Of a DNA stretch of 64,000 nt, positions 1 through 63,569 are shown one piece after another. This stretch comes from Escherichia virus TH38. How positions within the stretch are numbered: the first letter of the stretch is position 1; each line of letters starts with the position of its first letter. The stretch lies in the sequence record MT446410.1. One strand, given 5' to 3'. The notes under the pieces were generated by a model, which made no database searches, had not been told where the DNA came from, and saw only the letters and a list, made by a program, of their open reading frames with translations. The position numbers were made by a program, and so were the translations under genes.

Positions 1-172
1 CCTAAGCCCCAAAATATTTAAAGTATATATTATATGGTATATTCATATGAATAGGGTGACACTGGCGCCATTATTGTGCAACCAAAAAAGACTACTCTGA
101 AAACGAGGAAAAGATTTTTTCCTGCCTGAATTAGATACGGAGTTAGCGATATGAAAACCGAACAACGTCATG
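1..172. repeat. Direct repeat copy A (171 bp, one indel near the end versus copy B); plasmid divergent-promoter region
   Basis: 1-166 identical to 3174-3339, then tcatg shared after a 1-nt indel; offset 3173 bp. Confidence 0.9.
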
Positions 173-321
173 ATCTTGTTAAAGATATTGAGGTTTTTGG
201 CGTATCCTTGTCTCTGTTGATTTCCAGAGCGAATGAGAAGTCTGTTACAATGCCATCTGGTCTAAGTCGGGAGCAGAGAAGAGCATGGGCAGCGGAGCAG
301 GCGCGCAAAATCCACAATTGA
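151..321 (+). CDS. Small ORF (56 aa) overlapping the start of the next ORF; possible antitoxin-like partner
   Basis: ATG at 151 with GGAG 8 nt upstream; 37-nt overlap with the 285-713 ORF in another frame; not in ORF track (<60 aa). Confidence 0.25.
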   Translation: MKTEQRHDLVKDIEVFGVSLSLLISRANEKSVTMPSGLSREQRRAWAAEQARKIHN

Positions 322-713
322 ATATTGTCTCATTCTCTGAGACCTTCAACCTTTATTACACATCCAGATATTCTGCAAAAACACTCGATAAAATCGATGA
401 TTTCATTGAGCATTTTGAAAAATACAATCTCTTTGGCGATCCTTTAAAAGGATATCCAGCTTGGACTGGCAAAGTATCGCCATCGTGGAAAGTGCCTGAT
501 CATTACGAAAACAAAGAAGCTATTGAGAAGTATGCTAGAGCTAACAAATTATGGCATGCTCATTTAGGCGATCCGGTTTTTAAAGATACGTTTCATGGGA
601 AATACAAGGTTTCTGACTGGGTTATTCATTTCCAGCGGCTGACACCGAACCATATAAAGCTTTTAGAGCTTGGATACCATGACCCAATGAAGCTACCTCA
701 AAACTTTGAATGA
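285..713 (+). CDS. Hypothetical protein, possibly a toxin-like (YafO-type?) plasmid protein; true start may be internal
   Basis: 142-aa ORF with a WHAHLGDP motif; operon-like overlap with the upstream small ORF; family assignment is a weak recollection. Confidence 0.3.
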   Translation: MGSGAGAQNPQLNIVSFSETFNLYYTSRYSAKTLDKIDDFIEHFEKYNLFGDPLKGYPAWTGKVSPSWKVPDHYENKEAIEKYARANKLWHAHLGDPVFKDTFHGKYKVSDWVIHFQRLTPNHIKLLELGYHDPMKLPQNFE

Positions 714-737
714 TCGAGCGGCAGGCTAAATGAAATC

Positions 738-766
738 TTGAGATTCATTCAGTCTCGTCGTAATCT
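738..766 (+). promoter_or_regulatory. RNA II (replication primer) promoter, -35 TTGAGA / 17 bp / -10 TAATCT
   Basis: Same architecture and near-identical sequence to the pMB1/ColE1 RNA II promoter. Confidence 0.6.
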
Positions 767-774
767 CACTATTG

Positions 775-1330
775 TAAAAACGAAAAAACCACCCTGGCAG
801 GTGGTTTTTCGAAGGTTAGTTAATCCTGGCAGATTCTCTAACCGTGGTAACAGTCTTGTGCGAGACATGTCACCAAATACTGTCCTTTCAGTGTAGCCTC
901 AGTTAGGCCGCCACTTCAAGAACTCTCGTTACATCTCTCGCACATCCTGCTTACCAGTGGCCGTTGCCAGTGGCGTTAAGTCGTGTCTTACCGGGTTGGA
1001 CTCAAGACGATAGTTACCGGATAAGGCGCAGCGGTCGGGCTGAACGGGGGGTTCGTGCACACAGCCCAGCTTGGAGCGAACGACCTACACCGAACCGAGA
1101 TACCAACAGCGTGAGCTATGAGAAAGCGCCACGCTTCCCGAAGGGAGAAAGGCGGACAGGTATCCGGTAAGCGGCAGGGTCGGAACAGGAGAGCGCACGA
1201 GGGAGCTTCCAGGGGGAAACGCCTGGTATCTTTATAGTCCTGTCGGGTTTCGCCACCTCTGACTTGAGCGTCGATTTTTGTGATGCTCGTCAGGGGGGCG
1301 GAGCCTATGGAAAAACGCCTCCCGCGCGCC
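775..1330 (+). ncRNA. RNA II pre-primer of ColE1-type origin; RNA-DNA switch expected near 1320-1330
   Basis: Long near-identical stretch to the pMB1/ColE1 ori (e.g. ccagtggcg...taagtcgtgtcttaccgggttggactcaagacgatagttaccggataaggcgcagcggtcgggctgaacggggggttcgtgcacacagcccagcttggagcgaacgacctacaccgaac). Confidence 0.8.
779..886 (-). ncRNA. RNA I antisense copy-number control RNA (approximate ends)
   Basis: Antisense to the RNA II 5' end; hairpin aaaaaaccaccctggcaggtggttttt corresponds to the RNA I terminator; loop sequences differ from pMB1. Confidence 0.6.
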
Positions 1331-1547
1331 CTTCTTCTGGGTCTTTGTCTTTTGCTCACATGTTCTTTCCGGTTTTATCCCCCGATTCTGTGGATAACCG
1401 TATTACCGCCTTTGAGTGAGCTGACACCGCTCGCCGCAGTCGAACGACCGAGCGTAGCGAGTCAGTGAGCGAGGAAGCGGAAGAGCGCCTTATGTGACAT
1501 TTTCTCCTTACGCTCCTCTATGCCGTTCTGCATCCTGTCCGGATGCG

Positions 1548-1742
1548 TTATATCCCGGTAAGATTTTCCGCTTCAAAGCGTGTCTGTATGCTGTTCTGGA
1601 GTTCTTCTGCGAGTTCGTGCAGTTTCTCACACATGGCGGCCTGTTCGTCGGCATTGAGTGCGTCCAGTTTTTCGAGCAGCGTCAGGCTCTGACTTTTTAT
1701 GAATCCCGCCATGTTGAGTACGGCTTGCTGCTGCTTATTCAT
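1548..1742 (-). CDS. rop: Rop/Rom RNA I-RNA II modulator protein
   Basis: 64 aa, MNKQQQAVLNMAGFIKSQSLTLLEKLDALNADEQ... closely matches ColE1 Rop; convergent with RNA II as in pBR322. Confidence 0.9.
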   Translation of the reverse strand: MNKQQQAVLNMAGFIKSQSLTLLEKLDALNADEQAAMCEKLHELAEELQNSIQTRFEAENLTGI

Positions 1743-2001
1743 CTTTTCGTTTTCTCCGTTCTGTCTGTCATCTGCGTTGTGTGATTATATCGCGTACCAC
1801 TTTTCGACTGTTTTGCTGCCGCTATTCTGCCGCTTGGCTTTTTGACGGGCATTTCTGTCAGACAACACTGTCACTGCCAAAAAACTGCCGTGCCTTTGTC
1901 GGTAATTCGAGCTTGCTGACAGGACAGGATGTGCAATTGTTATACCGCGCATACATGCACGCTATTACAATTGCCCTGGTCAGGGCTTTGCCCCGACACC
2001 C

Positions 2002-2349
2002 ATGTCAGATACGGAGCCATGTTTTATGACAAAACGAAGTGGAAGTAATACGCGCAGGCGGGCTATCAGTCGCCCTGTTCGTCTGACGGCAGAAGAAGAC
2101 CAGGAAATCAGAAAAAGGGCTGCTGAATGCGGCAAGACCGTTTCCGGTTTTTTACGGGCGGCAGCTCTCGGTAAGAAAGTTAACTCACTGACTGATGATC
2201 GGGTACTGAAAGAAGTTATGAGACTGGGGGCGTTACAGAAAAAACTCTTTATCGACGGCAAGCGTGTCGGGGACAGGGAGTATGCGGAGGTGCTGATCGC
2301 TATTACGGAGTATCACCGTGCCCTGTTATCCAGGCTTATGGCAGATTAG
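2002..2349 (+). CDS. MobC-like ribbon-helix-helix mobilization accessory protein (no relaxase gene seen)
   Basis: 115 aa; RLTAEEDQEIRKRAAECGKTVSGFLRAAALG resembles the MobC family motif. Confidence 0.45.
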   Translation: MSDTEPCFMTKRSGSNTRRRAISRPVRLTAEEDQEIRKRAAECGKTVSGFLRAAALGKKVNSLTDDRVLKEVMRLGALQKKLFIDGKRVGDREYAEVLIAITEYHRALLSRLMAD

Positions 2350-2569
2350 CTTCCCGGAGAGAAAACTGTCGAAAACTGACGGTATGAACACCGTAAGCTC
2401 CCAAAGTGATCACCATTCGCTTTCATGCATAGCTATGCAGCGAGCTGAAAACGATCCTGACGCATCCTTCCTGTTTTTCCGGGGTAAAACATCTCTTTTT
2501 GCGGTGTCTGCGTCAGAATCGCGTTCAGCGCGTTTCAGTGGTGCGTACAATTAAGGGATTATGGTAAAT
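2350..2569. promoter_or_regulatory. cer-like multimer resolution site; XerC/XerD core at 2540-2569
   Basis: Exact ColE1 cer core GGTGCGTACAA-TTAAGGGA-TTATGGTAAAT at 2540-2569; accessory region assumed upstream. Confidence 0.8.
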
Positions 2570-2737
2570 ATATGAGCTATGCGATAACTTTAACTGTGAA
2601 GCGATGAACCCATTACAGGCAAAGCCAATTACTCCTGACAGTGGTTTAGCCAGAAGCAGGGCTACCAAGACCAATGCAATAAGTAATATATCGTTTTGCT
2701 ATCGTGCATCGCTCGCGCTCAGTTCCATTGTGCTTTT

Positions 2738-3166
2738 TTAAGCTGTCGTTTTTCTTACGGTATATACCGGTTTTTTATGGCGTGGTTTCTTAACTTGTTC
2801 AGCTACTGATGGACCCATTGTATCTAGGTAGTCAACTAGCTTTGTTAGATCATAAATATTGCGACCACCATATCGGCGATCACTCTTCGATGTTGGTTTC
2901 TTGTCCAAGAGATTAGCTTTTTCAAGATCATTGATAGCTCTCTGAACAGTCCGTACAGAAACCCCCATACGTATGGCTAGACTTTCCATTGACGGATGCG
3001 GCCACTCTTGCAAACTCCACCAGTGAACGATCAGGTTAAGTAGTGTGTTAAAGGCCACTGAAGTTAGCTTTTTCTCGTTTTGTATAAAAAACAATACGGT
3101 AGGCACTGCTGTCCAGCCAAGAGACAAACCGCCAGCTTTCCATTTATTCTTAACGGAGTAAGTCAT
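2738..3166 (-). CDS. Winged-helix/HTH DNA-binding protein (plasmid-borne, function unknown)
   Basis: 142 aa; LAIRMGVSVRTVQRAINDLEKANLL HTH; start 8 bp from the repeat. Confidence 0.45.
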   Translation of the reverse strand: MTYSVKNKWKAGGLSLGWTAVPTVLFFIQNEKKLTSVAFNTLLNLIVHWWSLQEWPHPSMESLAIRMGVSVRTVQRAINDLEKANLLDKKPTSKSDRRYGGRNIYDLTKLVDYLDTMGPSVAEQVKKPRHKKPVYTVRKTTA

Positions 3167-3173
3167 TGATTTT

Positions 3174-3344
3174 CCTAAGCCCCAAAATATTTAAAGTATA
3201 TATTATATGGTATATTCATATGAATAGGGTGACACTGGCGCCATTATTGTGCAACCAAAAAAGACTACTCTGAAAACGAGGAAAAGATTTTTTCCTGCCT
3301 GAATTAGATACGGAGTTAGCGATATGAAAACCGAACAACTCATG
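3174..3344. repeat. Direct repeat copy B; plasmid/phage junction at about 3340-3345
   Basis: Identity with 1-172 ends at 3344, after which sequence is phage-like. Confidence 0.9.
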
Positions 3345-3557
3345 GTTGAGGTTCTGAAGACGCTCATTTCTGTCTTCAACTTGCATAATAAGATCATTAA
3401 GTGTTACTTTAACTTTCTCATTATACATCTCATCCACTCGGACTAGAGATTTATACATTCTCTCCCAGCTTGCTGCTTTGTTTCTGAGAACAATAAACCC
3501 TATAACGCTGATAGTTAAACAGCTTACAAAAAGGAATTTATATACCTCTAAAGTCAT
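3216..3557 (-). CDS. Junction-spanning chimeric ORF: about 71 N-terminal residues phage-encoded (TM helix + coiled coil), C-terminus read from the plasmid repeat
   Basis: ORF crosses the repeat boundary at about 3343; N-terminus FLFVSCLTISVIGFIVL is hydrophobic. Confidence 0.35.
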   Translation of the reverse strand: MTLEVYKFLFVSCLTISVIGFIVLRNKAASWERMYKSLVRVDEMYNEKVKVTLNDLIMQVEDRNERLQNLNHELFGFHIANSVSNSGRKKSFPRFQSSLFWLHNNGASVTLFI

Positions 3558-3756
3558 ATTATTTACCCTTTATCAGAGATTAAAAGTAATATTATTTAAG
3601 TAAGTTATATTTAGTAAACTTATTTTCTAAGAAATTTTCAAAGGGTCTATATACAGAGCATTACCCATAGTCCCAGAATACTACCATCTTTTTCAATAAA
3701 TTTACTAAGTGGTTGGTTTATAAAGGAATTTAGTTTGTCAAATCTGGCACTAGTGA

Positions 3757-4146
3757 TTATTCCCTAGAGCTATTATCGAACACTAAATCACCACAATACA
3801 TAGGATTGGCATACCATTTTGGCACCCCTTCGCTCTTACTCTGAAAGTAAGTCCCACTGTACAGCGGAACATAATTCTTCTTAAGGGCACGTTTAGCTAG
3901 CCGCTCGCTTTCTCCAATGGCTTTCTTAGTCATCGGATTTTTATCACGAATCAGCTTTACATAACGTTTATAAGGTTTCTCCTGTTTTAATAGTACCGGA
4001 ATCCACTCAAACTGGTTCTTTTGTCTTATCACCTGTTCAGCGGTCAGTTTTCGTTGGGCCATTCTATTTATTACGGTATCCGCAACTAGGGCTTTACATG
4101 CGGTTGGCTGATTCCCTGCCTCATAATAAATAGTCAATGTCAACAT
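3757..4146 (-). CDS. Cell wall hydrolase, SleB/CwlJ-like (Hydrolase_2 domain)
   Basis: YYEAGNQP...ALVADTVINR...QKNQFEW motif pattern. Confidence 0.5.
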   Translation of the reverse strand: MLTLTIYYEAGNQPTACKALVADTVINRMAQRKLTAEQVIRQKNQFEWIPVLLKQEKPYKRYVKLIRDKNPMTKKAIGESERLAKRALKKNYVPLYSGTYFQSKSEGVPKWYANPMYCGDLVFDNSSRE

Positions 4147-4193
4147 TAGCTGTGCCGTTGTTATCAGAACTTGATACCTCCTGTTTTACGGGC

Positions 4194-4221
4194 ATAAAAA
4201 AGCCCCAGCCGTAGCCGGGGC
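4194..4221 (-). terminator. Rho-independent terminator (minus strand)
   Basis: Hairpin gccccggctacggctggggc followed by a T-run on the minus strand. Confidence 0.55.
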
Positions 4222-4284
4222 AAACCTGAAAGCAACGCATGACCGTTGCTATAAATACACTCGCAAATGCACTTACAGCAACGC

Positions 4285-4306
4285 AAAAAGCCGCTCAAAG
4301 GCGGCT
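4285..4306 (-). terminator. Rho-independent terminator (minus strand)
   Basis: Hairpin agccgcctttgagcggct plus T5 on the minus strand. Confidence 0.55.
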
Positions 4307-4362
4307 ATGCGGAAGCTTCAAATGGGGAGAGGGCATGACACTACAGAAAGAGCGTCATAGTA

Positions 4363-4545
4363 CTAAAAGAGAGGGGTGCTATTCCATAATGATTTCCTAT
4401 CCCTTTCTCTACTTCTAGATTCTATCTCCTTCTTTAGCAAATCGTTTTCTTCTTGCAAGGATGCTACCAGATGAACCAGAACATCAACTACTGCATCACC
4501 TTGCCGCATCTCTCTGACTTTATTTAGAATCTCTGAATAAATCAT
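4363..4545 (-). CDS. Hypothetical protein (60 aa)
   Basis: ORF; ATGA start/stop overlap with the upstream gene. Confidence 0.4.
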   Translation of the reverse strand: MIYSEILNKVREMRQGDAVVDVLVHLVASLQEENDLLKKEIESRSRERDRKSLWNSTPLF

Positions 4546-4985
4546 TTTACCCTCGCCTCTTTGATGGGGTCGATGTATTTCTCAACGCCCCACTTGTGTT
4601 TACTATCTGCGTAGAAAACATCAGGTGCACATTGGCTTGTTTTAGGGAAGGCTTGCGGGTCTTTCGTGCTCCCCTTAAACTTCTGTTTACCTCGAGTGCG
4701 ACCATTACAGAAGATTTCTAACTTCTTCTCTTCTTCTGTTTTAGCGCCCCCGCTCTGTAACAAAGAACGTTTATGATCGGCTAATAATAACGCATCAGCA
4801 CGATGGACACGATGGCCTACGCGCTTAGGTATACTAGAAGGAACATGAGATTCAGCCTCAGCCTTTGCAGCACGACGTTTTAAACTGCGCTTGCTGACGT
4901 GATTGGTTGCCTTCGGCTTCTCTTTCTCCAGTTCAGAGATAGAAAAACAACGCCCGCCCTTCATGCTGATTTTAGATTTAGCCAC
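4542..4985 (-). CDS. Hypothetical basic protein (147 aa)
   Basis: ORF with a Lys/Arg-rich sequence. Confidence 0.45.
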   Translation of the reverse strand: MAKSKISMKGGRCFSISELEKEKPKATNHVSKRSLKRRAAKAEAESHVPSSIPKRVGHRVHRADALLLADHKRSLLQSGGAKTEEEKKLEIFCNGRTRGKQKFKGSTKDPQAFPKTSQCAPDVFYADSKHKWGVEKYIDPIKEARVK

Positions 4986-5054
4986 AATCTTATTCCTTCC
5001 AGTGATAAGTTATATCGGGCAAGCCCATCAAGTCGATAGGCTTGAACAAATAAC

Positions 5055-5264
5055 TTAATCAAGTAAACTAAACGATTTCCAACTGCGTAGCAGGATTGTA
5101 CCGTCATCCATAGCTACGCATAACTTTAACAGTTTCTTGTTAGCACTACTCACCGTTGTAATTCGTCCAGTTGTACATTTACCTTTGTTGCTATAAAGAT
5201 ATATAACACGACGGCCTAACAGACGAGAAGGTGCTTTCTTAAATTCTGAAATGTTAGTGATCAT
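5055..5264 (-). CDS. Hypothetical protein (69 aa)
   Basis: ORF; ATGA overlap with the upstream gene. Confidence 0.4.
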   Translation of the reverse strand: MITNISEFKKAPSRLLGRRVIYLYSNKGKCTTGRITTVSSANKKLLKLCVAMDDGTILLRSWKSFSLLD

Positions 5265-5485
5265 AATGCTTGATACCTTTGAATGTGTTCAATACGGGTG
5301 GATTGAGCAAATGACGCTTTAACAGCCATTTTCCTAACTTCTTCTTTACGCTGGTTAGTGTGTACAGTATCCCAATGATTGTTATCACGTTGGCGCTGTA
5401 ATATCTTACTGCATTTGCGATGGTTTCCCGTGCTGCGATGTTTCTCACAAATAGGACACTTGCCAAAATTATTACTGAATATCAT
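5261..5485 (-). CDS. Hypothetical small protein with CPIC...H...H putative zinc-binding motif
   Basis: ORF; coupled ATGA overlaps on both sides; preferred over the overlapping 5254-5466 frame. Confidence 0.4.
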   Translation of the reverse strand: MIFSNNFGKCPICEKHRSTGNHRKCSKILQRQRDNNHWDTVHTNQRKEEVRKMAVKASFAQSTRIEHIQRYQAL

Positions 5486-5709
5486 TTTCTCAATCCCAAC
5501 TTTCTTAAGATACGGCCTAACGTTGTTTCTTGCGTGATAATATAGCTGATCGCTTCACGTTCCAACGTTTCAATCTTCATTGGTGACGGATACCATTCAC
5601 CGGTAATAACACATTTACATTCAACGCCATACTTTTTAGATAGGCGGTAATGTTGACCATTGACAAGATTCCGATAAATCGTGGTATGTGTAATTAACAT
5701 GATCATCAC
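5482..5709 (-). CDS. Hypothetical protein (75 aa)
   Basis: ORF. Confidence 0.4.
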   Translation of the reverse strand: MMIMLITHTTIYRNLVNGQHYRLSKKYGVECKCVITGEWYPSPMKIETLEREAISYIITQETTLGRILRKLGLRK

Positions 5710-5753
5710 CTTTGATTAGATTCTTTGATTAATGCACTGAATCAATGCACTGA

Positions 5754-5787
5754 TAAAAGAAAAGGCGCTACCCGTTAAGATAGCGCC
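5754..5787 (-). terminator. Rho-independent terminator (minus strand)
   Basis: Hairpin ggcgctatcttaacgggtagcgcc plus T-rich tail on the minus strand. Confidence 0.55.
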
Positions 5788-5811
5788 TTATGTTTATTTA
5801 AATTGTCTTAC

Positions 5812-6720
5812 TTATGCCGCCTGACGTGCCGCCATAATTTCAGCCGCTTTACGCAATACCTCTTCCTCTTCTGCTTTCGCCGCTTGTTCGGTACGGGTAG
5901 CAACCGTTGAAGAGATACGACCGCGCAGACTCTCTAACTTCTCCTGCATAGCTGCAACAGTCTTTTCCATTTCATCAGCGTATGAATCGAGTGATTCTAA
6001 TTCCTTGCTTGATGCGTTCATCAGGTAGTTATCAGAGATCGCTACCGTTGAGGCCGTGACTTTCTTGATGAGTGAATCAAAAGATTTCTTAACCTTTCCT
6101 ACTTCTTCACTCAGGGCGATAGTGTTATCACTAGTTGCGCCGTTGCGCTCATCAGCCAGTAATTTGGCTTCAATACGGATTGCATTCAAGCGTTCAACCA
6201 AAGCGTAAATATCTTGGTTAAAGTCTTCCTTGTTTTTCGCCGGGATTTGCAGGTGTGCCGCCACATTGTCATTGCAACCCTTGTAAAAGTTAGGGTTATC
6301 GACTTCAATTTCACGGCCTAAAGCAAAGTTTTCGAAAGCGTTTGACCAGCGAGCGCGGTTTTGTTCCATTTTGGTTTTAATTTGCGCTTCTTTCGCGTCT
6401 TCTTTAGCTTTCGCCTCACCTTCCAGATTAATCCACTTTTTACGACCATTTGCCGCATCAGTGTTAAACTTGATAGGAGTTAAGAAAGTAATTGCAGTGG
6501 CAATCACATCCATATCACGAAAACGTTCAGTTAACAAGAAGTCAACCGCCGTCTGCAATACGTCCAGCTTTTTACCGTTACTGCGGAAGTGCTGTAAGTG
6601 CCCTAACAGGAAGTTAGAAACATCTTGTTTGATCGCCGCGTTATTGCTACGAATGTTGTTAGCCAGTGCATTAAAACCAGATTCGTTAACCAGAGTAAAA
6701 ACTTTAGCCATGATATTCAC
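5812..6720 (-). CDS. Hypothetical early protein (302 aa)
   Basis: Long ORF, first gene downstream of the promoter-rich AT region. Confidence 0.55.
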   Translation of the reverse strand: MNIMAKVFTLVNESGFNALANNIRSNNAAIKQDVSNFLLGHLQHFRSNGKKLDVLQTAVDFLLTERFRDMDVIATAITFLTPIKFNTDAANGRKKWINLEGEAKAKEDAKEAQIKTKMEQNRARWSNAFENFALGREIEVDNPNFYKGCNDNVAAHLQIPAKNKEDFNQDIYALVERLNAIRIEAKLLADERNGATSDNTIALSEEVGKVKKSFDSLIKKVTASTVAISDNYLMNASSKELESLDSYADEMEKTVAAMQEKLESLRGRISSTVATRTEQAAKAEEEEVLRKAAEIMAARQAA

Positions 6721-6780
6721 CTTTCAATTGTAAGGGCGCTATTGCCCCGCTCTCTATGAGCTTGTTTAAGTCACTATTAA

Positions 6781-6820
6781 CTTATCAATAACCACTCATT
6801 GTTAAGTAATTATTGATAAG
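6781..6820. promoter_or_regulatory. Perfect 11-bp inverted repeat CTTATCAATAA / TTATTGATAAG (18-bp spacer), with a third CTTATCA nearby; candidate operator
   Basis: Seen directly, about 60-100 bp upstream of the 5812-6720 gene start. Confidence 0.4.
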
Positions 6821-7627
6821 CGGGGCGGTCTTATCAGGAGTTAAACTTGCCGCCCCCTTATCCGTGATGTTTCATCTGGTATCTTTAATTAGTCGCTATA
6901 AACGAAGCCGACCTGATAGCGATGATCAATCATCACAATAAGGCAGTGCGTCCGACTCTAATTAGTTACATTTATTGTAACCGTCGGCAATATCGTCTAC
7001 TTTGCTTTCGCTCTCGCCTATCCTTTTGTATCAACTCTCAATCACTAGCCATCGCCCACAACGGGATGCTATTGTGAAAGAGTCATTGACCGTCTAATGT
7101 TCTGACGTTTTATATCTTTCGGCAAGTTTACTACATAAACTGACTATGTACGCCATCGATAGTGGCCTCAAATCATTCACATCGTAAACGTTCACACTAA
7201 ACCTTATTGTTAAATAGCAATTTGCCACTTTTTAACCACTCCCCGCCGCCCTCAATTGAGCGTTAATTCTTCGGGCTTGCCTACCCTGATTAACTTCTTT
7301 CACTGTAGCGCCTTGTTAGCGATGACCGCCGCTACCCTTAACCGTGGGCGATTAGCTTAAGTCTTTGCGTACACTCAATGAATCCGTTTATCAGTGGTGA
7401 CGTTTCCAGTAAGGGATTGTAAGATTGTTTACTCTGATAACTTAGAGAATCTTACACCGTTTTATCTGGTATGCTATCCGATGGTTATTATCATCTAGCA
7501 TATTCAACCGATATATGAGAATGTTTAAATTGTTAAAGAGCGGTAAATCTGTCAGTGTGCTTTCTCACACTACGCAACTGTTAGCCGTTGTTACGCTTTC
7601 CTTAAGCGATGATTTGCTTAAGTGTGC

Positions 7628-7656
7628 TCATTATGAATCATGTTGTTTTCGCTGTC
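7628..7656 (-). promoter_or_regulatory. Sigma70-consensus early promoter (TTGACA-17 bp-CATAAT), leftward
   Basis: Minus strand ttgacagcgaaaacaacatgattcataat; A/T-rich UP-like sequence upstream. Confidence 0.6.
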
Positions 7657-8118
7657 AACCACTTTTTTAATCTTTTTCGTCGTTCCCTTTATTGGGAGGA
7701 TATATCAATCAGCTATATTTGATTGAAGATTAAGCGGCAAGGCTTAAACTTATGATTCATATTTTTAAAGAGCGGTTACTACACTTTCAGCTTAACACAT
7801 CGTGTTAACTTGTCAAACTCTTTTTTATCATCTTCTTTTATTCCGTTCCCTTATCTCGCTTGAATCTATGCGAAAGGGCAAGATGATAAGTCTGATTTGT
7901 CTTTTAGGAATCTAGTGCGCTTTCAAGCATCGACCATTTGAAAGTATCGAACAAATGAGGCTTATTTTGTTGCTCATCGTCCGCCTGTTCACGTATGAAT
8001 CAGGAATCAATTCTAGTGGTCAACTAAGCGCCTTATAGTAATGACGTTCCCGCCACCTGTAAGACAAATCATATTTTTAAAGAGCGGGATTTTTTAAGTC
8101 ATCGCTGACTGAGTGCTT

Positions 8119-8147
8119 ATTATGAATCAGGCTGTTTTCGGTGTCAA
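8119..8147 (-). promoter_or_regulatory. Sigma70-consensus early promoter (TTGACA-17 bp-CATAAT), leftward
   Basis: Minus strand ttgacaccgaaaacagcctgattcataat; paralogous to the 7628-7656 promoter. Confidence 0.6.
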
Positions 8148-8557
8148 TACTCTTTTTAAGAATATTTTCACTTTCTAGCCTGATTTTTAAAGAGCGTAGC
8201 ACCTTCATTGTGCGTCTTACTGTCGGTATTCCTACCGCTCCCCGTTGAAGCCTTTTACCGTGATGCTAATCACCTATCGAGGAGTTTTTACTACTTGTTG
8301 TTACTTACTGCTTACTACGGGATTCATATTACTATAAAGGAAAATCATGTCAATACCCTTTTTTCAAATTATTTTTCATCTCACTGTTTTATAAAGGAAT
8401 TTATTTTATTGTCGGTAGGACACCGGAAGAAATCAGGAGGTAAAAGAGCGGGGGCGCGTGATACATCATAGAAAACGGCTTGTAAAGCAATAATAAGCGG
8501 CCTGAAACGCACTGTAGCGAGCTAAAAGGGAGTAAGCCATACAATCACCCTAGAAAT

Positions 8558-8580
8558 GAAAAAAGCCTCATAGCGAGGCT
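8558..8580 (-). terminator. Rho-independent terminator (minus strand)
   Basis: Hairpin agcctcgctatgaggct plus T6 on the minus strand. Confidence 0.6.
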
Positions 8581-8657
8581 TATAGGAAGGTTTTAAAGTA
8601 TCAGATAAATTATGACCATAGGCATGACCACGGCACAATAAAGCAGAAATAGTAACC

Positions 8658-9035
8658 CTATGGATTTACACATTGACCGTTACCGGATTCAATTTCATTC
8701 ATGGACTCATCAAAGAGCGTTAACGATGAGCGCATCAAGTGATCAATCATGACTTGTTTACCGGTTGTTTCATTTACCAGTTGAACAGTTTTATCATATG
8801 ATTGCACATGATCGAAATCATTTACATGCAAAATAATAACTTTAGGTGACTTTTTACCGGTTTCATAGTTTTCTACAAGATAAGTACATTGCAAGCCGTC
8901 AACCGTAGCAGGGGAGAATGTTGCAGCCTTAACGCTACCCATAGCCGATAGGAGCACACCCAGCAGGAGAACGACAAGGAAGAAGCCCACGAATACTTTT
9001 ACTACAAATTTGATAATACCCATGATAATAATCAC
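8658..9035 (-). CDS. Hypothetical membrane-anchored early protein
   Basis: ORF with an N-terminal hydrophobic segment. Confidence 0.45.
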   Translation of the reverse strand: MIIIMGIIKFVVKVFVGFFLVVLLLGVLLSAMGSVKAATFSPATVDGLQCTYLVENYETGKKSPKVIILHVNDFDHVQSYDKTVQLVNETTGKQVMIDHLMRSSLTLFDESMNEIESGNGQCVNP

Positions 9036-9127
9036 CTATAGTTAGAGAATATAAGAATAAAGCATATCAGCGACGAATAACGCCACTGTAACAACGAACA
9101 AGCAACGCCAAAAATAATCATGAATCA

Positions 9128-9382
9128 CTAGTTGCTATCCTCGCCAAAAAATGCTACGCTAACCTGTTCCACTTCTTCCAGCGACAGAAGAATCCCGCGT
9201 TGGGCTAAATACTTCCCAATAGTGAGATAATCCTGTACTAAATAGACCGCAGGAAAGCTAATAGTTTTTATTTCACCCTTAGTTAGAAAGGACAAATAAG
9301 TGTAGTCGATTGACTCATCAAAGGAGAGCGTAACGCCACCGTAATTGTGCGTGTCAATCAGTGCGATTGTTTCATTACCCAT
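9128..9382 (-). CDS. Hypothetical protein (start adjusted to internal ATG coupled to the upstream stop)
   Basis: GGAGGTGG RBS and ATG overlapping the stop of the 9375-9638 ORF. Confidence 0.4.
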   Translation of the reverse strand: MGNETIALIDTHNYGGVTLSFDESIDYTYLSFLTKGEIKTISFPAVYLVQDYLTIGKYLAQRGILLSLEEVEQVSVAFFGEDSN

Positions 9383-9638
9383 TAGTGCCACCTCCAACAA
9401 GGCCATGATTGAGCAGGTTAGCCAGTGACAAGCCACCGTCAAAATATATAGAACGAAAATCATCACGGTTAATTTCAACGCCGATAGCAGATAGCCAATT
9501 TTTAGCCTGTTTAAAATCCATAACGCAGAAAGTAACAACAGGCAACGTTAACTGACCATGACGCAGATTAAACGTGATAGCGGTATCGCCAACAAAAACA
9601 GAATAGCCATTAGATAATCTAACTTCTTTGATAGCCAT
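9375..9638 (-). CDS. Hypothetical protein (87 aa)
   Basis: ORF. Confidence 0.4.
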   Translation of the reverse strand: MAIKEVRLSNGYSVFVGDTAITFNLRHGQLTLPVVTFCVMDFKQAKNWLSAIGVEINRDDFRSIYFDGGLSLANLLNHGLVGGGTNG

Positions 9639-9663
9639 TTTTACACTCCTGAAAATAGGTTAT

Positions 9664-10536
9664 TTACTTACTAGCCTTAATACAGTTGGCTAAATTAACG
9701 TGAACGGTATAAACAGCGTTATCAGCGTTATTGTAAACAGTTGTAGCAATCATCGACTCATTGATCGGGCCATAGCTCACTAGGTTGGTTACAGCTTTAA
9801 CGTCTTCGTAACGTTGTACAGTGCCAAATGTCACCATATCCGCATCGTTATCAGTACGCTTGAGAACTAGATCACTGTTAGGCTGATTATCTAACGTTTT
9901 AGATTGAAAGAGAACGCCATCATTTGTTACGTTGCTAAATTTCATCTTTAGCACGATATTATTGCTGTCACTATCCGCACCGTTGCAAATCATCCAACCC
10001 TTATTGATGGAACTAGAGAAGACACTAGCCGCATCAGTTGCAGGAGCAGGACTAGCGATAGCCTTATCAGAAAGAGATGTGACCAGTGCACTAACACCGA
10101 TAGCTGCAACCAGTGCATAACTTGCCAGATTAACAGACTTCATAATCTTACTTGCAACAGTAGGCTTGATTGGCTGTTTCTTGTTTTTCTTGTTCCATGC
10201 TTCAACCATGACAGACAAGCGGGATAATTCAGCTTTCACATCACGGCATGACTCAGGCCAATCTTTCTGATTCCAGCTATCCAAATTCGCTTGAATGTAA
10301 CAATTGATAGCGTCCTGCATATCGGTAAAACCGTTCTCTTTGAACGTGCTTTCATCTTCACACTGTAAAGCGTTCGCAGTAGAATTAATGATCAAGCAAG
10401 CCAGCATTACAGAGTTTTTGAATCCTTTACGTGCGCTTTCGTTTTCCATCCACGCATCAGGACTACCAACAGTTAAGCCTAAAGAGGAAAGACTTTCGTT
10501 TGCTTTGTTCAAGTGGTTAATTGCTACTTTAGACAT
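9664..10536 (-). CDS. Hypothetical early protein (290 aa) with a central hydrophobic segment
   Basis: ORF with AAGGAA RBS; first gene leftward of the divergent region. Confidence 0.5.
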   Translation of the reverse strand: MSKVAINHLNKANESLSSLGLTVGSPDAWMENESARKGFKNSVMLACLIINSTANALQCEDESTFKENGFTDMQDAINCYIQANLDSWNQKDWPESCRDVKAELSRLSVMVEAWNKKNKKQPIKPTVASKIMKSVNLASYALVAAIGVSALVTSLSDKAIASPAPATDAASVFSSSINKGWMICNGADSDSNNIVLKMKFSNVTNDGVLFQSKTLDNQPNSDLVLKRTDNDADMVTFGTVQRYEDVKAVTNLVSYGPINESMIATTVYNNADNAVYTVHVNLANCIKASK

Positions 10537-10580
10537 TTGATATTCCTTATGGTTGATGAAAACTACAAATTACAATCGCA

Positions 10581-10608
10581 ACTATATAATAAAGGAAAAA
10601 CCTGTCAA
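10581..10608 (-). promoter_or_regulatory. Sigma70-like promoter (TTGACA-16 bp-TATAGT), leftward
   Basis: Minus strand ttgacaggtttttcctttattatatagt about 40 bp upstream of the 10536 start. Confidence 0.5.
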
Positions 10609-10719
10609 CCATTTATTTTCTAACTTTCTTATAACTCACTGAAAACTAAAGGAATTTAATTTACTAAACTTTCCATACTCAGAGAATCAGCTTACTAGCT
10701 ATTGTTACTTTATAACACT

Positions 10720-11190
10720 AATCCTACGGGTGTTACGCTGGTGCTACGGGTAGCAGACCAACAGACCAGGGCAAACGGGGAACACACAACCGCAGAACAG
10801 ACCACGGGGAAACATAGCAAGATAGTGCGGTAATAATATACCACTTAAATAATTGTATAACTCAAACATCAAAGACGTTCGCTACGCTCACAAAGGCACG
10901 CTGAAAAAGAAAAGAATAAAAGAAACACAATCATCCACTTAATTAATACATATATCATTATTGCACTCATAATCATTACTATTGAAACTATTATCAACGT
11001 AACTATGGGGGAATGGGGTAGTAACTAGGGGTATTATTAGACCTGTTATTATCACGCCTTAACAGACCGTTATCAGAGTATAGCCTTTCTCTCACTCTCT
11101 AAAGGGGAACTAAATAAACGGGTAGCTAATGTATTGGGTAGTATACACGGGGAAATAATTACGGGGAGTAGGCACGGGGAAAAGTGGAAC
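10720..11190. repeat. Iteron-like short direct repeats (ACGGGGAA about 7 copies; CAGACCA 3 copies) in the divergent intergenic region
   Basis: Seen directly, e.g. aaacggggaacac, ccacggggaaacat, acacggggaaataattacggggagtaggcacggggaaaag. Confidence 0.5.
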
Positions 11191-11589
11191 GTTGAAAAGG
11201 AAGGTAAAGGCATTGCCAATAACCCTTTTTTAAATGAGGACTCCCCCCTTTTAGGAAACGCGCGGGAAGCGGCTAGCCCCATTCGGTCAAATTGAAATTT
11301 TAAACTGTTATATATAAGGTTGAAAGAGAACTTATGTGGAAAATTAAGTTAATCATTAAGCAATTTAAATGTGATCATGAGTACTATCGGATTCGTAAAG
11401 CTTACGGGGATGAAAGAGTTCACACCCTTTATAAGTCCACTTGGAGATGTAGTAAGTGTGGTAAGCTTAAACACAGCACATGGATGGATAGGTCTTAATG
11501 GAATGGATATTCTGGTTAGTAATAGTCTTCTGTTTATTCATCTGCTTCTCTATAGCAAGATGTATCAAGTATGATTAAGGAACATTAGT

Positions 11590-11725
11590 GACTGACTAAG
11601 CCTTAACATGACATGGCCTTTATGTGAGGGTGCCTTAACATGAAGTCCCCTTTACATCAGCGTACACGGGTTGCTAGTATGAGGATGCCTTTACGGGTTG
11701 GATATGACTAGCCCTTTATACTTTT
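11590..11725. repeat. Array of about 6 GCCTT(T/A)A-type repeats just upstream of the first rightward gene
   Basis: gccttaacatga occurs twice, plus gcctttatgtga, cccctttacatc, gcctttacgggt, gccctttatac. Confidence 0.45.
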
Positions 11726-11743
11726 ATTCAGAGGAGAAGAATT

Positions 11744-11998
11744 ATGAATTTAGTATTAGACTTTTTATCAGAGATGGTGCCTCGGTTCAGAACGGAGACA
11801 TACGCTTTCGTAATCAACAGTGACTCTGAAGATGGGATGGAAGCTACGTGCTTAGGTCGACTTGTTGACTTAGATGATGATGACGATTTCGATATTACAA
11901 TTGACGTGAGTAGCTTAGGTTGGCTCTTCTTCAGAGCATTCCGCACTTACAAAGTAGAAACATACAAAGATTATAGCAAGGGAGATACAAATGAATAA
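11744..11998 (+). CDS. Hypothetical acidic protein (84 aa)
   Basis: ORF with RBS. Confidence 0.45.
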   Translation: MNLVLDFLSEMVPRFRTETYAFVINSDSEDGMEATCLGRLVDLDDDDDFDITIDVSSLGWLFFRAFRTYKVETYKDYSKGDTNE

Positions 11999-12623
11999 TC
12001 CAATAATCGCAGTTAATATGGAAGGTGTTTATGGAGGTAGCTTCCCTTCTGGTTCTCCTTTCCACATTAAAGCAATGGACATAGTTGATTACAATTCACA
12101 GCTATGTCGTTCTGGTTGTAGCTTACAGCATTTAGAAACTATGGGAAATATTTCAGGACTAGCTGTACAAGATTTATATAGTGGAAGTATTCTTAAACCA
12201 AATATTACGGAGAACAAAAACATGTTAGATTTGATTCATACTACTCGCCCTGATTCTAAAACTAAAACACAACCATCTACTCTGGAAGTAATTGAATACG
12301 AATCTACTAAACATGATCACCTCCCTGACTATGCTCGTGCAATGATTGAGATGATTGAAGAAGCTGAATATGAAATGCTCCATGATTACATTACCTCCAA
12401 AGATGAATGGCATCGTGATGTTCGAATTGAAGAAGATGGTACAGAAACAATTACGTGGATTCACAAGAGTGAGTTAGTAGACGACGCACTGCGAGACTAC
12501 GAAAAATTTTTGGTCGACGGCTCTATTCTTTTAGAGGAAGAGAAGGGTGCAGACCTTCCGTGGGAAGGTGAGACGATTGCTCTTGGTAAGACGTTTAACC
12601 TGTCCATTGGTGATTGTAAGTAA
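11991..12623 (+). CDS. Hypothetical protein (210 aa)
   Basis: ORF with AGGGAG RBS. Confidence 0.5.
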   Translation: MNNPIIAVNMEGVYGGSFPSGSPFHIKAMDIVDYNSQLCRSGCSLQHLETMGNISGLAVQDLYSGSILKPNITENKNMLDLIHTTRPDSKTKTQPSTLEVIEYESTKHDHLPDYARAMIEMIEEAEYEMLHDYITSKDEWHRDVRIEEDGTETITWIHKSELVDDALRDYEKFLVDGSILLEEEKGADLPWEGETIALGKTFNLSIGDCK

Positions 12624-12628
12624 TATTT

Positions 12629-12650
12629 GCCTCCGTTGGGAGGCTTTTTG
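12629..12650 (+). terminator. Rho-independent terminator
   Basis: gcctccgttgggaggc followed by ttttt. Confidence 0.6.
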
Positions 12651-12679
12651 TGTTGTTGATAATGTAGAAGGAGTATAAA

Positions 12680-13153
12680 ATGTTTGGAGAAAACGGAGAA
12701 CTCACGCCTGCACAGGTAGCTGAGATTACAGGAAGATTACCCGGAGTAACGGAAGAACTTGAAGGACGTGGTATGAACCCAAGCAATGGGAAGTTTCAAA
12801 AGGGAAATAAATTCGGACGACCCAGAGGTAGTAGAGGTAAACTGACACAATTAATGTTGGACCGTGTTGCTGCAAGTCATTTGTCTCCTGATGAAGTGTT
12901 AATTCAAATTTACGAAGATCCTAATATTCCACCTGATCTTAGATTCAAGGCTGCATCAAAAGTTGCAGATCTGGTATATCCTAAGGCGGCCTCTGTTGAA
13001 GTTAAGATTGAGGAAGAGAATGTAATCAACGAAGAATCATTGAATGCACAAATCAAGGACTTCTTGACTGGAGCACTTGGTATCGACGTTATGCCTCCAG
13101 AAGAAGACAACTCTGAAGAAAATGAAACGAACAGTCAAGATGAGCAGGTTTAA
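12680..13153 (+). CDS. Putative terminase small subunit (by position; N-terminal HTH-like, acidic C-terminus)
   Basis: Immediately upstream of the large terminase; GAAGGAG RBS. Confidence 0.4.
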   Translation: MFGENGELTPAQVAEITGRLPGVTEELEGRGMNPSNGKFQKGNKFGRPRGSRGKLTQLMLDRVAASHLSPDEVLIQIYEDPNIPPDLRFKAASKVADLVYPKAASVEVKIEEENVINEESLNAQIKDFLTGALGIDVMPPEEDNSEENETNSQDEQV

Positions 13154-13289
13154 GGAATCCTCTCGTTAAACTAACAAACCTTAGAAGTGATAGAGGAGAT
13201 TTCATTTATTCAAGAGTTAATTAAAGGAAAGAAGGGGAGGTTCTTTGACGAAGGGACTTTCCCTTTTCTATTTTTAAACTGGAGGAAGT

Positions 13290-14831
13290 ATGTCATTAGA
13301 TAAACAAATTTATGAAGCTCTAACTGGTAACAACCTTAGTGTAGAGGAAAAGAAAGCACTATTGAATATGTTGAAAGAGCGTGACCAATGGAGGAAGTAT
13401 AATAGGATTTTGTCTTTCAAGGCGTATGACTTCCAAAAGAAATTTTATGCAGCAGGATTGAAGCATCGCTTTAGATTCTTGTGTGCAGCGAACCGTGTTG
13501 GTAAATCTTATAGTGAGGCATACGAGTTTGCTTGTCATGTCACAGGTCGCTACCCAACTTGGTGGACAGGATATAAATTTAAAAGACCTATCTTAGCATG
13601 GGCAGTTGGTATTACAGGGGATTCCACAAGGAAAGTATTGCAAAAGGAATTGTTTGGTACACCTATCGGAAAGGATACAAATTTATTGGGGACAGGTGTC
13701 ATTCCTCGTGATGCTATCGTCATTGACACGATAGAACGAGATGGTAACAAACTTCAAATCGTACAAATCAAACATCAAAACGAAAGAGGAGAGTTTGACG
13801 GTTTAAGTACATTAGAATTCCGTTCAACCCAACAGGGTGAACACACATTGATGGGTGCAACAGTTGACTACATTTGGTTAGACGAAGAAGATCCATACGA
13901 GTCTATGGCTATATTCGCACAGTGCGTCACACGTACACTCACAACTAAAGGTCTAGTTACAATTACAGCTACACCAGAGAACGGTTTAACTGAACTGGTA
14001 GATAAATTTATGAAAGGTGAAGGGGATGAGAACACAGGTTCTCTATATTTCCAGAATGCTTCTTGGTGGGATGCTCATGCAGACCTAGGTGGACATATCA
14101 CTGACCAAGATATAAAAGATATGACTGAAGGTATTCCAGCGTGGCAGTTAGAGATGCGTTCGAAAGGTATGCCATTGTTAGGAAGTGGTTTGATTTATGA
14201 TGTATCGGATGACACAATTAAATGTGAACCATTCGAAATTCCTGATACGTGGAAACGTGTCTGTGCAATTGATATTGGTATTGATCACCCAACTGCTGCT
14301 GTTTGGACAGCTTACGACGCAAACACGGATACTATCTATGTTTACGACTCATATAAAGAAGGTGGCTTTACTCCAGTGTATCATGCCCCAGCTATTAATG
14401 GTCGTGGTCAGTGGATTCCTGTCATCCTACCGCACGATGCGGACAATATTGAGAAAGGTAGTGGCTCATCTGTTGCTCAATTCTATAAGAATGCAGGAGT
14501 TAACGTGCAGAGTGAGACCTTCTACAACAAAATTGGAATGGATGGTAAAAAGAACTTCTTTGTAGAACCGGGAATCACAGATATCCGAGAAAGAATGATG
14601 AGTGGACGCTTTAAAATCTTTAACACAGCCGCTAACGCTAAGCTATTCGAAGAGAAAGCTAGATATCACCGTAAGGTTGGTAAGATTATTAAAGAACATG
14701 ATGACTTAATGGATGCAATGCGCTATTCAGCGTGCTCTGTTACACATCGTGGTCGCTCTAAACATGACGTTAGCTACGGAAGTGCTTCTCTGTATGAGGC
14801 AAACGTAAGCAGATGGAATCAGAGTTACTAA
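13290..14831 (+). CDS. Terminase large subunit
   Basis: 513 aa; Walker A-like AANRVGKS, Walker B-like DYIWLDEED, C-terminal nuclease-like region. Confidence 0.75.
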   Translation: MSLDKQIYEALTGNNLSVEEKKALLNMLKERDQWRKYNRILSFKAYDFQKKFYAAGLKHRFRFLCAANRVGKSYSEAYEFACHVTGRYPTWWTGYKFKRPILAWAVGITGDSTRKVLQKELFGTPIGKDTNLLGTGVIPRDAIVIDTIERDGNKLQIVQIKHQNERGEFDGLSTLEFRSTQQGEHTLMGATVDYIWLDEEDPYESMAIFAQCVTRTLTTKGLVTITATPENGLTELVDKFMKGEGDENTGSLYFQNASWWDAHADLGGHITDQDIKDMTEGIPAWQLEMRSKGMPLLGSGLIYDVSDDTIKCEPFEIPDTWKRVCAIDIGIDHPTAAVWTAYDANTDTIYVYDSYKEGGFTPVYHAPAINGRGQWIPVILPHDADNIEKGSGSSVAQFYKNAGVNVQSETFYNKIGMDGKKNFFVEPGITDIRERMMSGRFKIFNTAANAKLFEEKARYHRKVGKIIKEHDDLMDAMRYSACSVTHRGRSKHDVSYGSASLYEANVSRWNQSY

Positions 14832-26534: not shown

Positions 26535-26753
26535 ATGAAAATGATGAAACAAGCTGTATATGGTTTAGTTTGTTTAGGTGCAGGAGTCGTGGTATCTACT
26601 GCAATCCCTGTAAGCGCAGTTCATCCATTAGTTACAGCACCTGCTCCAGTAGAGAAACTTAGTTCTCAATGTAAGCAGCGAACCATTCAAAATAATCTAG
26701 TTGTTATTTGTCCTGATGCTGAATCTAACGCTCTGAGAAAGATACTACCTTAA
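26535..26753 (+). CDS. Small membrane/secreted protein upstream of the lysozyme (holin candidate)
   Basis: 72 aa, one N-terminal hydrophobic helix, AGGAG RBS. Confidence 0.35.
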   Translation: MKMMKQAVYGLVCLGAGVVVSTAIPVSAVHPLVTAPAPVEKLSSQCKQRTIQNNLVVICPDAESNALRKILP

Positions 26754-61227: not shown

Positions 61228-61785
61228 TTACATTTTCCAATATAATGAAGGTGGGTCGTAAGGGTCGAATCCTGTGAGTTCACACAAGTATTTATAAACC
61301 TTAACGGTTAAGTTAACGTCCTGTTCACAATAAGTAAACATATCTTCAGTGAAAGCATCCCATGCTTCCTCTTGCTCACCGTAATCTCCTTTAAGTTCCT
61401 CTAAGAACTCACCCCACTGCTTCAAGCCATGACCTCTTGGGCCATGTCTAGGGTCGCCTTTCGGATACTCAGGACTGTCACCAATACGGTCAGGTTTAAG
61501 ATATCGACTAAGACATAGAGTGTCAAAGACGTTAAAATGATATTTAATCAAAGAAGGATACATCTTCTTCAGAGCAGGTAAGTCGAAGTCAATAATGTTA
61601 TGACCAACGAGCACATCAGCTTCTGTAAGTTTACGAATCCCGTCTTCAATTTGGTGAGGCCGATAGCCCCACCTTTCACCAGTTTCAACATTGAAGATGT
61701 AAATACACCATACTTTAGTTATGTCATCGTACAGTGCATTACTCTCGATATCGAATGCAAACACTTTCTTCTTTTTCTTTACCAC
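61228..61785 (-). CDS. Stand-alone DEDDy 3'-5' exonuclease domain protein
   Basis: FDIES (Exo I), HNIIDFD (Exo II), YCEQD (Exo III). Confidence 0.6.
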
Positions 61786-63569
61786 GGTGAAGCTCCATCT
61801 GCTTGGTTGACGAGAGAAGCTGCATCCTCTCCGTTAGTTAAAACGAATGGATTATCTTCATCAACTTCAAAGTCTTCCCTTTCTACAAGTCTACCGGTTT
61901 CACTGATATACTTAGTATAGCAGACACCCGTCTGACCGTAGTTACGTTCTTTCAGTAATCGAATGACTGAGAGGTTCTTAGCTAAGCCATCAGCTTGCTT
62001 GTCGCGCTCAAAGCCAATGATACACTGACACCAACGCATAAGGGAACGAGAACCAGTGAACTGCACTTCACGTACCTGTCCACCTTCTTCATGAGGAGCA
62101 CCACCTGCCGGAGCATTAAGGTGAGATAGCACGAAAGCGGTAAAGTCTAACTCTTTACACATACCAGCAAGCTCGGAAGCAATCTTACTGATTTCAGTGT
62201 TAATCTCTGAAGGTGTTAAATGAGATACCAGAGCGGTAATGTTATCAAGGATGATAAACTTACACTGGTTTTCAACTACCCAGAAACGGATACACTGTTT
62301 AATGTCTTCCCATTCGTTCTGTCCGAAGTTGTCATACAAGAAGAATTTGTCTGCATAACGAAGTGCTTCATTACGCAAATCCTCCTCATCATATTCAACA
62401 TCAGGTCGGTGGAAAGGAATTGATGCTGACTTACCAGCAATGTTCTTAACAGACATGCCTACCTTCTCTTCCAAGAAGAAGCCACCTCCATTAAAACCAT
62501 GCTCTAAGCACAGATGGGCAACCAGCTCGTGAGCAATGAGTGTTTTACCACTCCCTACTCCACCACCAATTGCTACCACCTCTCCCCATCGAATACCGAA
62601 GGTCATCTCATTCAGAGTCTTCCACGGATATGGGATACCCCACTCCGCTTTCTTCAGAGCATCATCAAGACAATCAAAGATTGTTACAGCTCCAGCAGGA
62701 GATTCCCGCTTTGCTGAGTACTTGAGAATGTTGAATAACTCTTGACCACGACCAGACAGAAGCATGTCATTCGCATCCTTAATCTCTTTCTCCACACCGT
62801 TGTATGGGAAAGTTCCTTTAGGAATACGAGCAAACTTAACATGAGGGAATAAAGAACGACCTTTTGTTAAAGCTATCTCACCTGCATCATCGTTGTCCAT
62901 GCAGAGCACAACCTCCTCAAAACCATTTACGAAGTCTCGGTTACGAGACAACACAGAAGAGATTGAACCTGCACCGAACGGTAAAGAAACACATGCTGGT
63001 TTAATGTTTGTTGCATTTGTAAAAGCTGTAAGGACATGGAAACCTGACATACAGGATAGCGGGTCTTCAAAAATGAACAGCTTCTTGTTGTACACATCTC
63101 CACGTTGAGCTTGTGCCATACCGAACAAATCTGCTTCTTTCACACTGCCGACGTAATAGAACTTCTTACTATCTAGCAGCTTAACCTCATATCCGACAAT
63201 GTTTCCATCACGTTCACGAGGAAAGAAGTAACTGTCTGGTGTCTGACCATCAGTTTGACTGAGGCCAATACGACACTCAAAACGCTCTGATACAGCTTTT
63301 GGGATTAAACGGCGAGTAAGTTCACCCTGAGGAAGCTCTAAGCAATCATCTAAGACTTCTCTCAACTCTTCAGGGGATAACTCTTTCTTCTCGTTTGGAG
63401 TAGGTGTAGTGCCCTTTTCGAACACTTCGTAATTCCCACAACGGTTACAACTTCCCCACTCCTCACCAGTCTCTTCGTTACGGAAGAGAATCATGTGGTT
63501 GTGGGTTTTATCACGACCATGAGAGATACATTCCTTACAACCTGTGTCTCCCAAAATGATCTTTGACAT
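61779..63569 (-). CDS. T7 gp4-like primase-helicase
   Basis: N-terminal zinc finger CKEC...CNRCG; DnaB-like Walker [10 protein letters not shown]. Confidence 0.7.

Follow-up and report, generated by a model that had tools for sequence, protein, structure and literature searches.

The interrupted gene next to plasmid DNA in the record of Escherichia virus TH38 is very probably an artefact of assembly in the deposited sequence rather than a biological feature. The window, i.e. the whole stretch of 64,000 nucleotides analysed here, comes from MT446410.1, which was submitted as a "complete genome" and, as with its sibling records, bears the flag UNVERIFIED. Across the join between a plasmid part and a phage part runs a chimeric open reading frame (ORF) that starts as a conserved 98-aa phage protein and ends in plasmid antisense sequence (Table 1). 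The value of this observation lies in quality control, as a curation flag on MT446410: ca. 3.3 kb of host plasmid DNA and the redundancy of its ends would inflate the record in size, and two fusion ORFs in it would be artificial. A reader could take it for a phage with plasmid genes for mobilisation or replication, or for a phage-plasmid, and surveys of phage records that look for cargo of plasmid origin, disrupted genes or "dispensable" genes would be led astray here.

Table 1. Features of the window, in positions of the 64,000-nt stretch
Feature	Position	Strand	Basis or remark
Complete pMUT1 unit	1..3173		100.0% identity to many 3173-bp pMUT1 records
RNAI	780-881	-	Detected in the plasmid part
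Second, partial plasmid pass	3174..3339		Exact direct repeat of 1-166; 166 nt, 100%, spacing 3173 (repeat search)
Chimeric ORF, 113 aa	3216..3557	-	ATG start; ORF list
Reciprocal chimeric ORF, 40 aa	3324..3446	+	5 codons (MKTEQ) of the 56-aa pMUT1 ORF, then phage antisense
Plasmid/phage join	3335..3346		Between 3339 and 3340; alignment to both parents
SleB-type cell wall hydrolase (Hydrolase_2), 129 aa, phi32_117 homologue	3757..4146	-	PF07486, 32.2 bits; PHROG 12974
phiEco32-type 193-nt terminal repeat, single copy	11082..11274		Both phiEco32 ends map here, right and left abutting
Putative holin homologue (phi32_16)	26535-26750	+	tblastn, 93% identity
Lysis protein homologue (phi32_17)	26783-27271	+	tblastn, 98% identity
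Replicative helicase, 596 aa, DnaB_C domain	61779..63569	-	PF03796 on identical product

The two parents and the join

Positions 1-3339 amount to 1.05 units of pMUT1 at 100% identity, with a match that covers the full 3173 bp of the plasmid. pMUT1 is a ColE1-type cryptic mobilizable plasmid of 3173 bp, first known from E. coli Nissle 1917. The genes of the plasmid part are rop, mobA, an HTH gene and a 142-aa hypothetical gene (annotation from NZ_MW240712.1), and the HTH protein was present in 6,644 blocks of the contig collection. The plasmid is broken in a region without annotation, between the HTH gene and the 142-aa gene. This break point falls inside an unannotated 56-aa pMUT1 ORF (151-321, plus strand; MKTEQRHDLVKD...), which is located just upstream of the 142-aa hypothetical gene and overlaps its start. 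Among the plasmid records, NZ_CP022687.1 (E. coli Nissle 1917, 11,499 bp) has the HTH gene and mobA twice each within a match of 4.2 kb to the plasmid part, and appears to be a concatenated multi-unit pMUT1 assembly.

The remainder of the window (3340-64000) is a phiEco32-like podophage of the genus Kuravirus. Its nearest GenBank relative is Escherichia virus TH06, to which it aligns collinearly with 96-99.9% identity; over 3344-9000, no GenBank phage in the collection searched exceeded 97.3% identity. Collinearity with TH06 runs across the ends of the TH06 record. Since the 193-nt terminal repeat occurs as a single copy inside the window, the phage part is circularly permuted and collapsed, and does not follow virion order; this order is what raw assembler output gives. 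The TH06 record (MT446386.1) has ca. 360 nt of terminal redundancy, both of its ends matching window positions 59137-59496, which indicates that records of the same study are unpolished circular-overlap assemblies. Another deposit, PP350014.1 ("phage PH444"), is an unannotated sequence of 114,913 bp with Kuravirus content at 93% identity; it exceeds every Kuravirus genome by ca. 37 kb, and a chimera or concatenation may be behind this record too. Close to the join, phiEco32 and some metagenomic relatives have a YadA/collagen-like adhesin gene ("tail protein" or "agglutinating adhesin") between the hydrolase gene and a 147-aa gene, whereas in the window (4147-4541) and in TH06 this variable slot is occupied by no more than a short spacer containing a 60-aa ORF.

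Read on the coding strand of the 113-aa ORF and with the break marked by a slash, the phage sequence at the join is ..AACCATGA/AGTATT (in its longer form ..AACCATGA/AGTATTACG), the reverse complement of pMUT1 is ..ATCATGAC/GTTGTTCGG, and the window is ..AACCATGA-GTTGTTCGG, equivalent to ..AACCATGAGTTGTTCGG. The two parents share CATGA(N)GT, the middle base of which is absent in the window, and the join is thus a slipped microhomology of 7 nt (5 nt + 2 nt). No longer similarity between plasmid and phage was detected within +/-150 nt, where the local alignment score was 10 and the mean of the shuffled sequences 11.6. An overlap mis-join is therefore unlikely, and the join must have been carried by one or a few chimeric reads; an overlap error of the assembler was rejected as a candidate because the local alignment falls below the shuffle mean.

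Searches with the exact 34-nt junction returned no match in the viral, genome and metagenome contig collections. Likewise, no phage record matched the plasmid side of the junction (3000-3333), and no plasmid or E. coli genome record matched the phage part. A different fusion of the same gene was observed in the contig ERZ27239213:k141_184031 (1-1025), whose product (P0018) combines the first 62 residues of the phage protein (247 nt, 94.7% identity to TH38) with a PilO-like C-terminus. A chorismate-synthase gene follows the fusion, and the contig is a 1-kb phage-bacterium chimera produced by MEGAHIT. The idea of a fusion hotspot was discarded, since the break in P0018 lies 11 codons upstream, at a different point, in a MEGAHIT chimera with a pilO-like gene.

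The reading frame across the join and the intact gene

The preliminary description reported a minus-strand ORF that starts at 3557 and whose frame continues from the phage into the plasmid repeat. Both observations were confirmed: the ORF (3216..3557, 113 aa) is present in the ORF list, and its positions 3216-3338 fall within the exact repeat of 1-166. The phage-derived portion had been put at about 71 residues; its phage origin is supported by the match to PHROG 12154, but the actual count is 73. Codons 1-72 are pure phage, and codon 73 (GAG, 3339-3341) straddles the join and still encodes the native Glu. The phiEco32 gp116-family protein contributes its N-terminus (codons 1-73, 3339-3557), and pMUT1 antisense sequence from the partial second plasmid copy supplies codons 74-113 together with the stop (3216-3338); the native last 25 residues (VLRLARANEDLRVAIAKQQEINSES) are in this way swapped for 40 plasmid-antisense residues. 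In the protein homology search, the chimeric protein (P0001) had a single member, from a single NCBI contig of 81,552 bp, and its exact look-up in the gene-position index returned no match.

The native family, represented by phi32_116 in phiEco32, gp124 in phage Paul and PHROG 12154, consists of 98-aa proteins. The window ORF matched PHROG 12154 with E=4.6e-45 over profile positions 1-81 only of 98, and the native TH06 protein over positions 1-97 (E=7.5e-58). The window ORF also matched 16 clusters of 98-aa proteins with 80-90% identity. Together with the PHROG 12154 match, these 16 related clusters indicate that the N-terminal part is a genuine gene and not a chance ORF. Judged from these alignments, the window ORF is a truncated family member fused to foreign sequence. 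It has neither the 98-aa length nor the conserved C-terminus (..EVLRLARANEDLRVAIAK..) of the family, and in an alignment of 19 sequences only the window protein P0001 and P0018, another chimera, deviate at the C-terminus. A relative having an ORF of the same length and C-terminus had been named as the observation that would make the repeat native phage DNA. None has a 113-aa ORF with the C-terminus of the window, and all are 98 aa, so the repeat is not native to the phage; the 98-aa length applies to all 16 related protein clusters as well as to phiEco32, Paul and TH06. The family is annotated at shorter lengths, 58 aa and 65 aa, in phages NJ01 and O18-011 (P0025 and P0027), probably because start sites or frameshifts were annotated differently.

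Gene order is conserved as well. The gene is on the same strand as the Hydrolase_2 gene and ca. 200 nt downstream of it, as in phiEco32, Paul and TH06, and each of the 10 contigs with an identical neighbouring hydrolase has a 98-aa gene at this distance. The upstream hydrolase gene belongs to the same leftward cluster as the truncated ORF. Its description as SleB-like, made from the sequence alone, agrees with the Pfam result (32.2 bits for a cut-off of 27) and with the annotation of its homologue in phage Paul as a "cell wall hydrolase". The N-terminal transmembrane helix that had been proposed was also supported (residues 8-24, FLFVSCLTISVIGFIVL; Kyte-Doolittle mean 2.69), and a charged tail follows it. 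For the proposed coiled coil, the best heptad register has 52% L/I/V/M at the a and d positions, a moderate pattern that makes it no more than plausible. The best description of the native protein would be that of a small conserved membrane-anchored helical protein, predicted from a gene of the leftward early-gene cluster beside a SleB-type hydrolase gene.

An intact version of the gene was found in what appears to be the same phage. One of the 10 contigs with the identical hydrolase is the Logan contig SRR11772961_164 (77,831 bp), from an independent assembly of run SRR11772961, which matched window positions 3340-14146 at 10,807 of 10,807 nucleotides with no gaps. At the junction site, which this contig reaches after ca. 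50.9 kb, native phage sequence continues with no plasmid and the 98-aa gene is intact. As the GenBank phages reach at most 97.3% over 3344-9000, this identity argues that the contig is the same phage as TH38; the link to the sequencing run is drawn from the match in sequence and from the closeness of the accession numbers. A private substitution, K65E, is common to the chimeric ORF and the intact 98-aa protein of that contig (P0019). P0019 was recorded from both NCBI and Logan, although its cluster entry reads "contigs: 1" and contig counting is imperfect in this respect; its longest contig has 81,552 bp, as for the chimeric P0001.

The sizes are consistent with two copies of the junction-site sequence in one record. 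Subtracting 3,339 from 81,552 leaves 78,213 phage bases, which compared with ca. 77.8 kb in the Logan contig gives an excess of ca. 0.4 kb. A terminal redundancy of this length is enough to re-cross the 218 nt that separate the junction from the start codon, and is comparable to the ca. 360 nt in the TH06 record. The sizes and the Logan assembly thus point to an intact gene copy at the far right end of the record, beyond the window. The plaque-forming TH38 would have an intact gene and no plasmid, and the Logan assembly suggests that junction reads are rare. The earlier statement that the gene is disrupted or replaced is therefore right for this sequence, in which the native C-terminus is replaced, but not for the phage, whose own gene is intact (P0019, SRR11772961_164).

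Functional labels attached to the family

From the neighbouring hydrolase gene, it had been suggested that the interrupted gene could encode a lysis-associated membrane protein. This suggestion was not supported in view of the intact homologues of a putative holin and a lysis protein elsewhere, the lack of an o-spanin partner and the position of the gene in the early-gene cluster. The phi32_16 and phi32_17 homologues are both intact in the window and located among late structural genes, which is where Kuraviruses have a putative holin and an endolysin/lysozyme (PMC7881722, PMC4281155). In phiEco32 and Paul, the gp116-family gene is found in the leftward cluster of short genes and not in a late lysis cassette with an endolysin, and this leftward cluster was treated as early genes in the SU10 paper (PMC4281155).

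The topology of the protein is holin-like, with one transmembrane domain at residues 8-24 and then a charged tail, and no lysis-family match was obtained for the gp116-family protein in PHROGs or Pfam. A holin identity is unsupported in view of the early-cluster location, the putative holin and lysis genes elsewhere and this lack of a lysis-family match. Identity as an i-spanin is equally unsupported, since no lipoprotein partner was found downstream. In the search for an o-spanin partner, the overlapping ORF downstream in TH06 had no signal peptide or lipobox; this ORF has 86 aa in the ORF list, and its homologue is annotated with 78 aa in phiEco32 and Paul. No embedded ORF of at least 40 aa occurs in the other frames of the TH06 gene. 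phiEco32 is listed among phages with two-component spanin families (PMC6139136).

A second label concerns DNA replication. PHROG 12154 and RefSeq carry the name "DNA helicase" for phi32_116 homologues. No Pfam helicase domain was detected in the 98-aa protein, the sole matches being weak DUFs below the cut-off. A helicase identity was rejected on the basis of the 98-aa length, the transmembrane domain and the lack of a helicase domain, and because the real DnaB-type helicase is encoded at 61779-63569. The "DNA helicase" label of the family looks spurious and unfounded.

Origin of the join and comparison with known systems

TH06 and TH38 come from a study of 38 sewage coliphages, in which DNA was obtained from lysates by SDS release and Genomic-tip purification with no DNase step described; Nextera XT libraries were sequenced on a MiSeq (2x250) and assembled with the Geneious de novo assembler (PMC7498436). 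TH38 (host PS50, MT446410) has 81,552 bp, compared with 77,284-77,980 bp for four siblings of Kuravirus size (PMC7498436), and is thus ca. 3.6-4.3 kb larger than these siblings. With a high degree of confidence, we regard the window as an assembly chimera and the gene as undisrupted in the phage, and the 113-aa ORF most likely marks the left edge of a mis-assembled contig. Since lysates were SDS-lysed and no DNase step is described, host plasmid DNA would have contaminated the lysate library. One or a few chimeric reads would then have linked plasmid and phage at the slipped 7-nt microhomology, with PCR template switching as the most likely source of such reads and rare hybrid molecules as a less likely one. 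Starting from such a read, the greedy Geneious assembler would have made one turn of the plasmid circle in one direction and, in the other, one turn of the collapsed phage "circle" plus ca. 0.4 kb. The junction-site sequence would in this way be present twice in the record, on the left fused to plasmid as the 113-aa ORF and at the far right as the intact 98-aa gene.

The details of the join leave some room for a biological origin, unlikely as it is, in which the joining reads are real minority hybrids, formed when replicating phage DNA recombined with a pMUT1 multimer in infected cells by microhomology-mediated illegitimate recombination. Such hybrids would have been co-purified or occasionally packaged; the junction would be biological, and the contig would still not be the plaque-forming genome. 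The join occurred at the slipped CATGA(N)GT and not at a random blunt point, and a microhomology of 5 nt + 2 nt exceeds what a blunt in-vitro join needs and fits illegitimate recombination in vivo equally well. Roughly estimated, ca. 1% of junctions would show a match of 5 nt at one of a few offsets by chance. There is also no longer similarity to mislead an overlap assembler, and a simple template switch does not account for the 1 nt lost at the join. In addition, no DNase being stated, intracellular replication products could have been present in the lysate DNA (PMC7498436). Against these points, the Logan assembly is unbranched through the site, so that junction molecules would be a small minority at most, and the junction was found in no other dataset searched. 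Furthermore, Nextera XT includes PCR, which also makes chimeras at microhomologies. Recombination in vivo of a virulent Kuravirus with a small ColE1-type plasmid at the slipped 7-nt microhomology is likewise improbable; if true, the lysate library would by chance have captured a possible first step by which a lytic podophage comes to mobilise or transduce a plasmid.

A viable TH38 with a clonal insertion of at least 1.05 units of pMUT1 in the gp116-family gene, which would then be dispensable, is highly improbable. The deposited 81,552 bp do exceed the siblings, the phage was plaque-purified three times (PMC7498436), and Kuraviruses of up to 79.4 kb exist, such as Paul. However, a clonal insertion would leave no intact copy, and the intact K65E protein is encoded by the Logan assembly as well as by a contig of 81,552 bp. 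The plasmid run also exceeds one unit with no second junction in the window, the start of which is the left end read; an insertion would show two. The size of the record allows at most ca. 1.18 plasmid units (81,552 minus ca. 77,800 of phage), and a single crossover, be it with a monomer or a multimer, could add no fraction of a unit. Still less credible is the proposal that the "plasmid repeat" belongs to the phage itself, with the 113-aa ORF as a true gene of the lineage. An open ORF, and nothing else, speaks for this proposal; against it, the 3' part matches pMUT1 at 100% and runs on without a break into a full plasmid unit, every relative has 98 aa and shares the conserved C-terminus, and the plasmid side of the junction is without counterpart in phage records, as described above. 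An assembly chimera remains the preferred explanation.

Compared with known systems, the window ORF resembles the phiEco32 gp116 family in its residues 1-73, which are identical to P0019 and 96-99% identical to relatives, and differs from it by 40 plasmid-antisense residues in place of the conserved last 25 residues. The native protein recalls Class III-type holins and i-spanins by its single N-terminal transmembrane domain, its charged helical tail and the adjoining cell wall hydrolase gene. In contrast to these, it is encoded in an early cluster, has no lipoprotein partner and has no match to a lysis family in PHROGs or Pfam. The window carries a full pMUT1 unit, including RNAI, rop, mobA and the HTH gene, at 100% identity, but as a linear run of 1.05 units joined to phage DNA; its host here would be an E. 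coli Reference Center strain (PS50 for TH38), not necessarily Nissle. Finally, the record is similar to other chimeric or concatenated contigs, such as NZ_CP022687.1 and ERZ27239213:k141_184031, in which a circular replicon is represented by more than one unit or unrelated sequence is attached at an arbitrary point with an artificial fusion ORF. It differs from both in that a host plasmid is joined to a plaque-purified phage.
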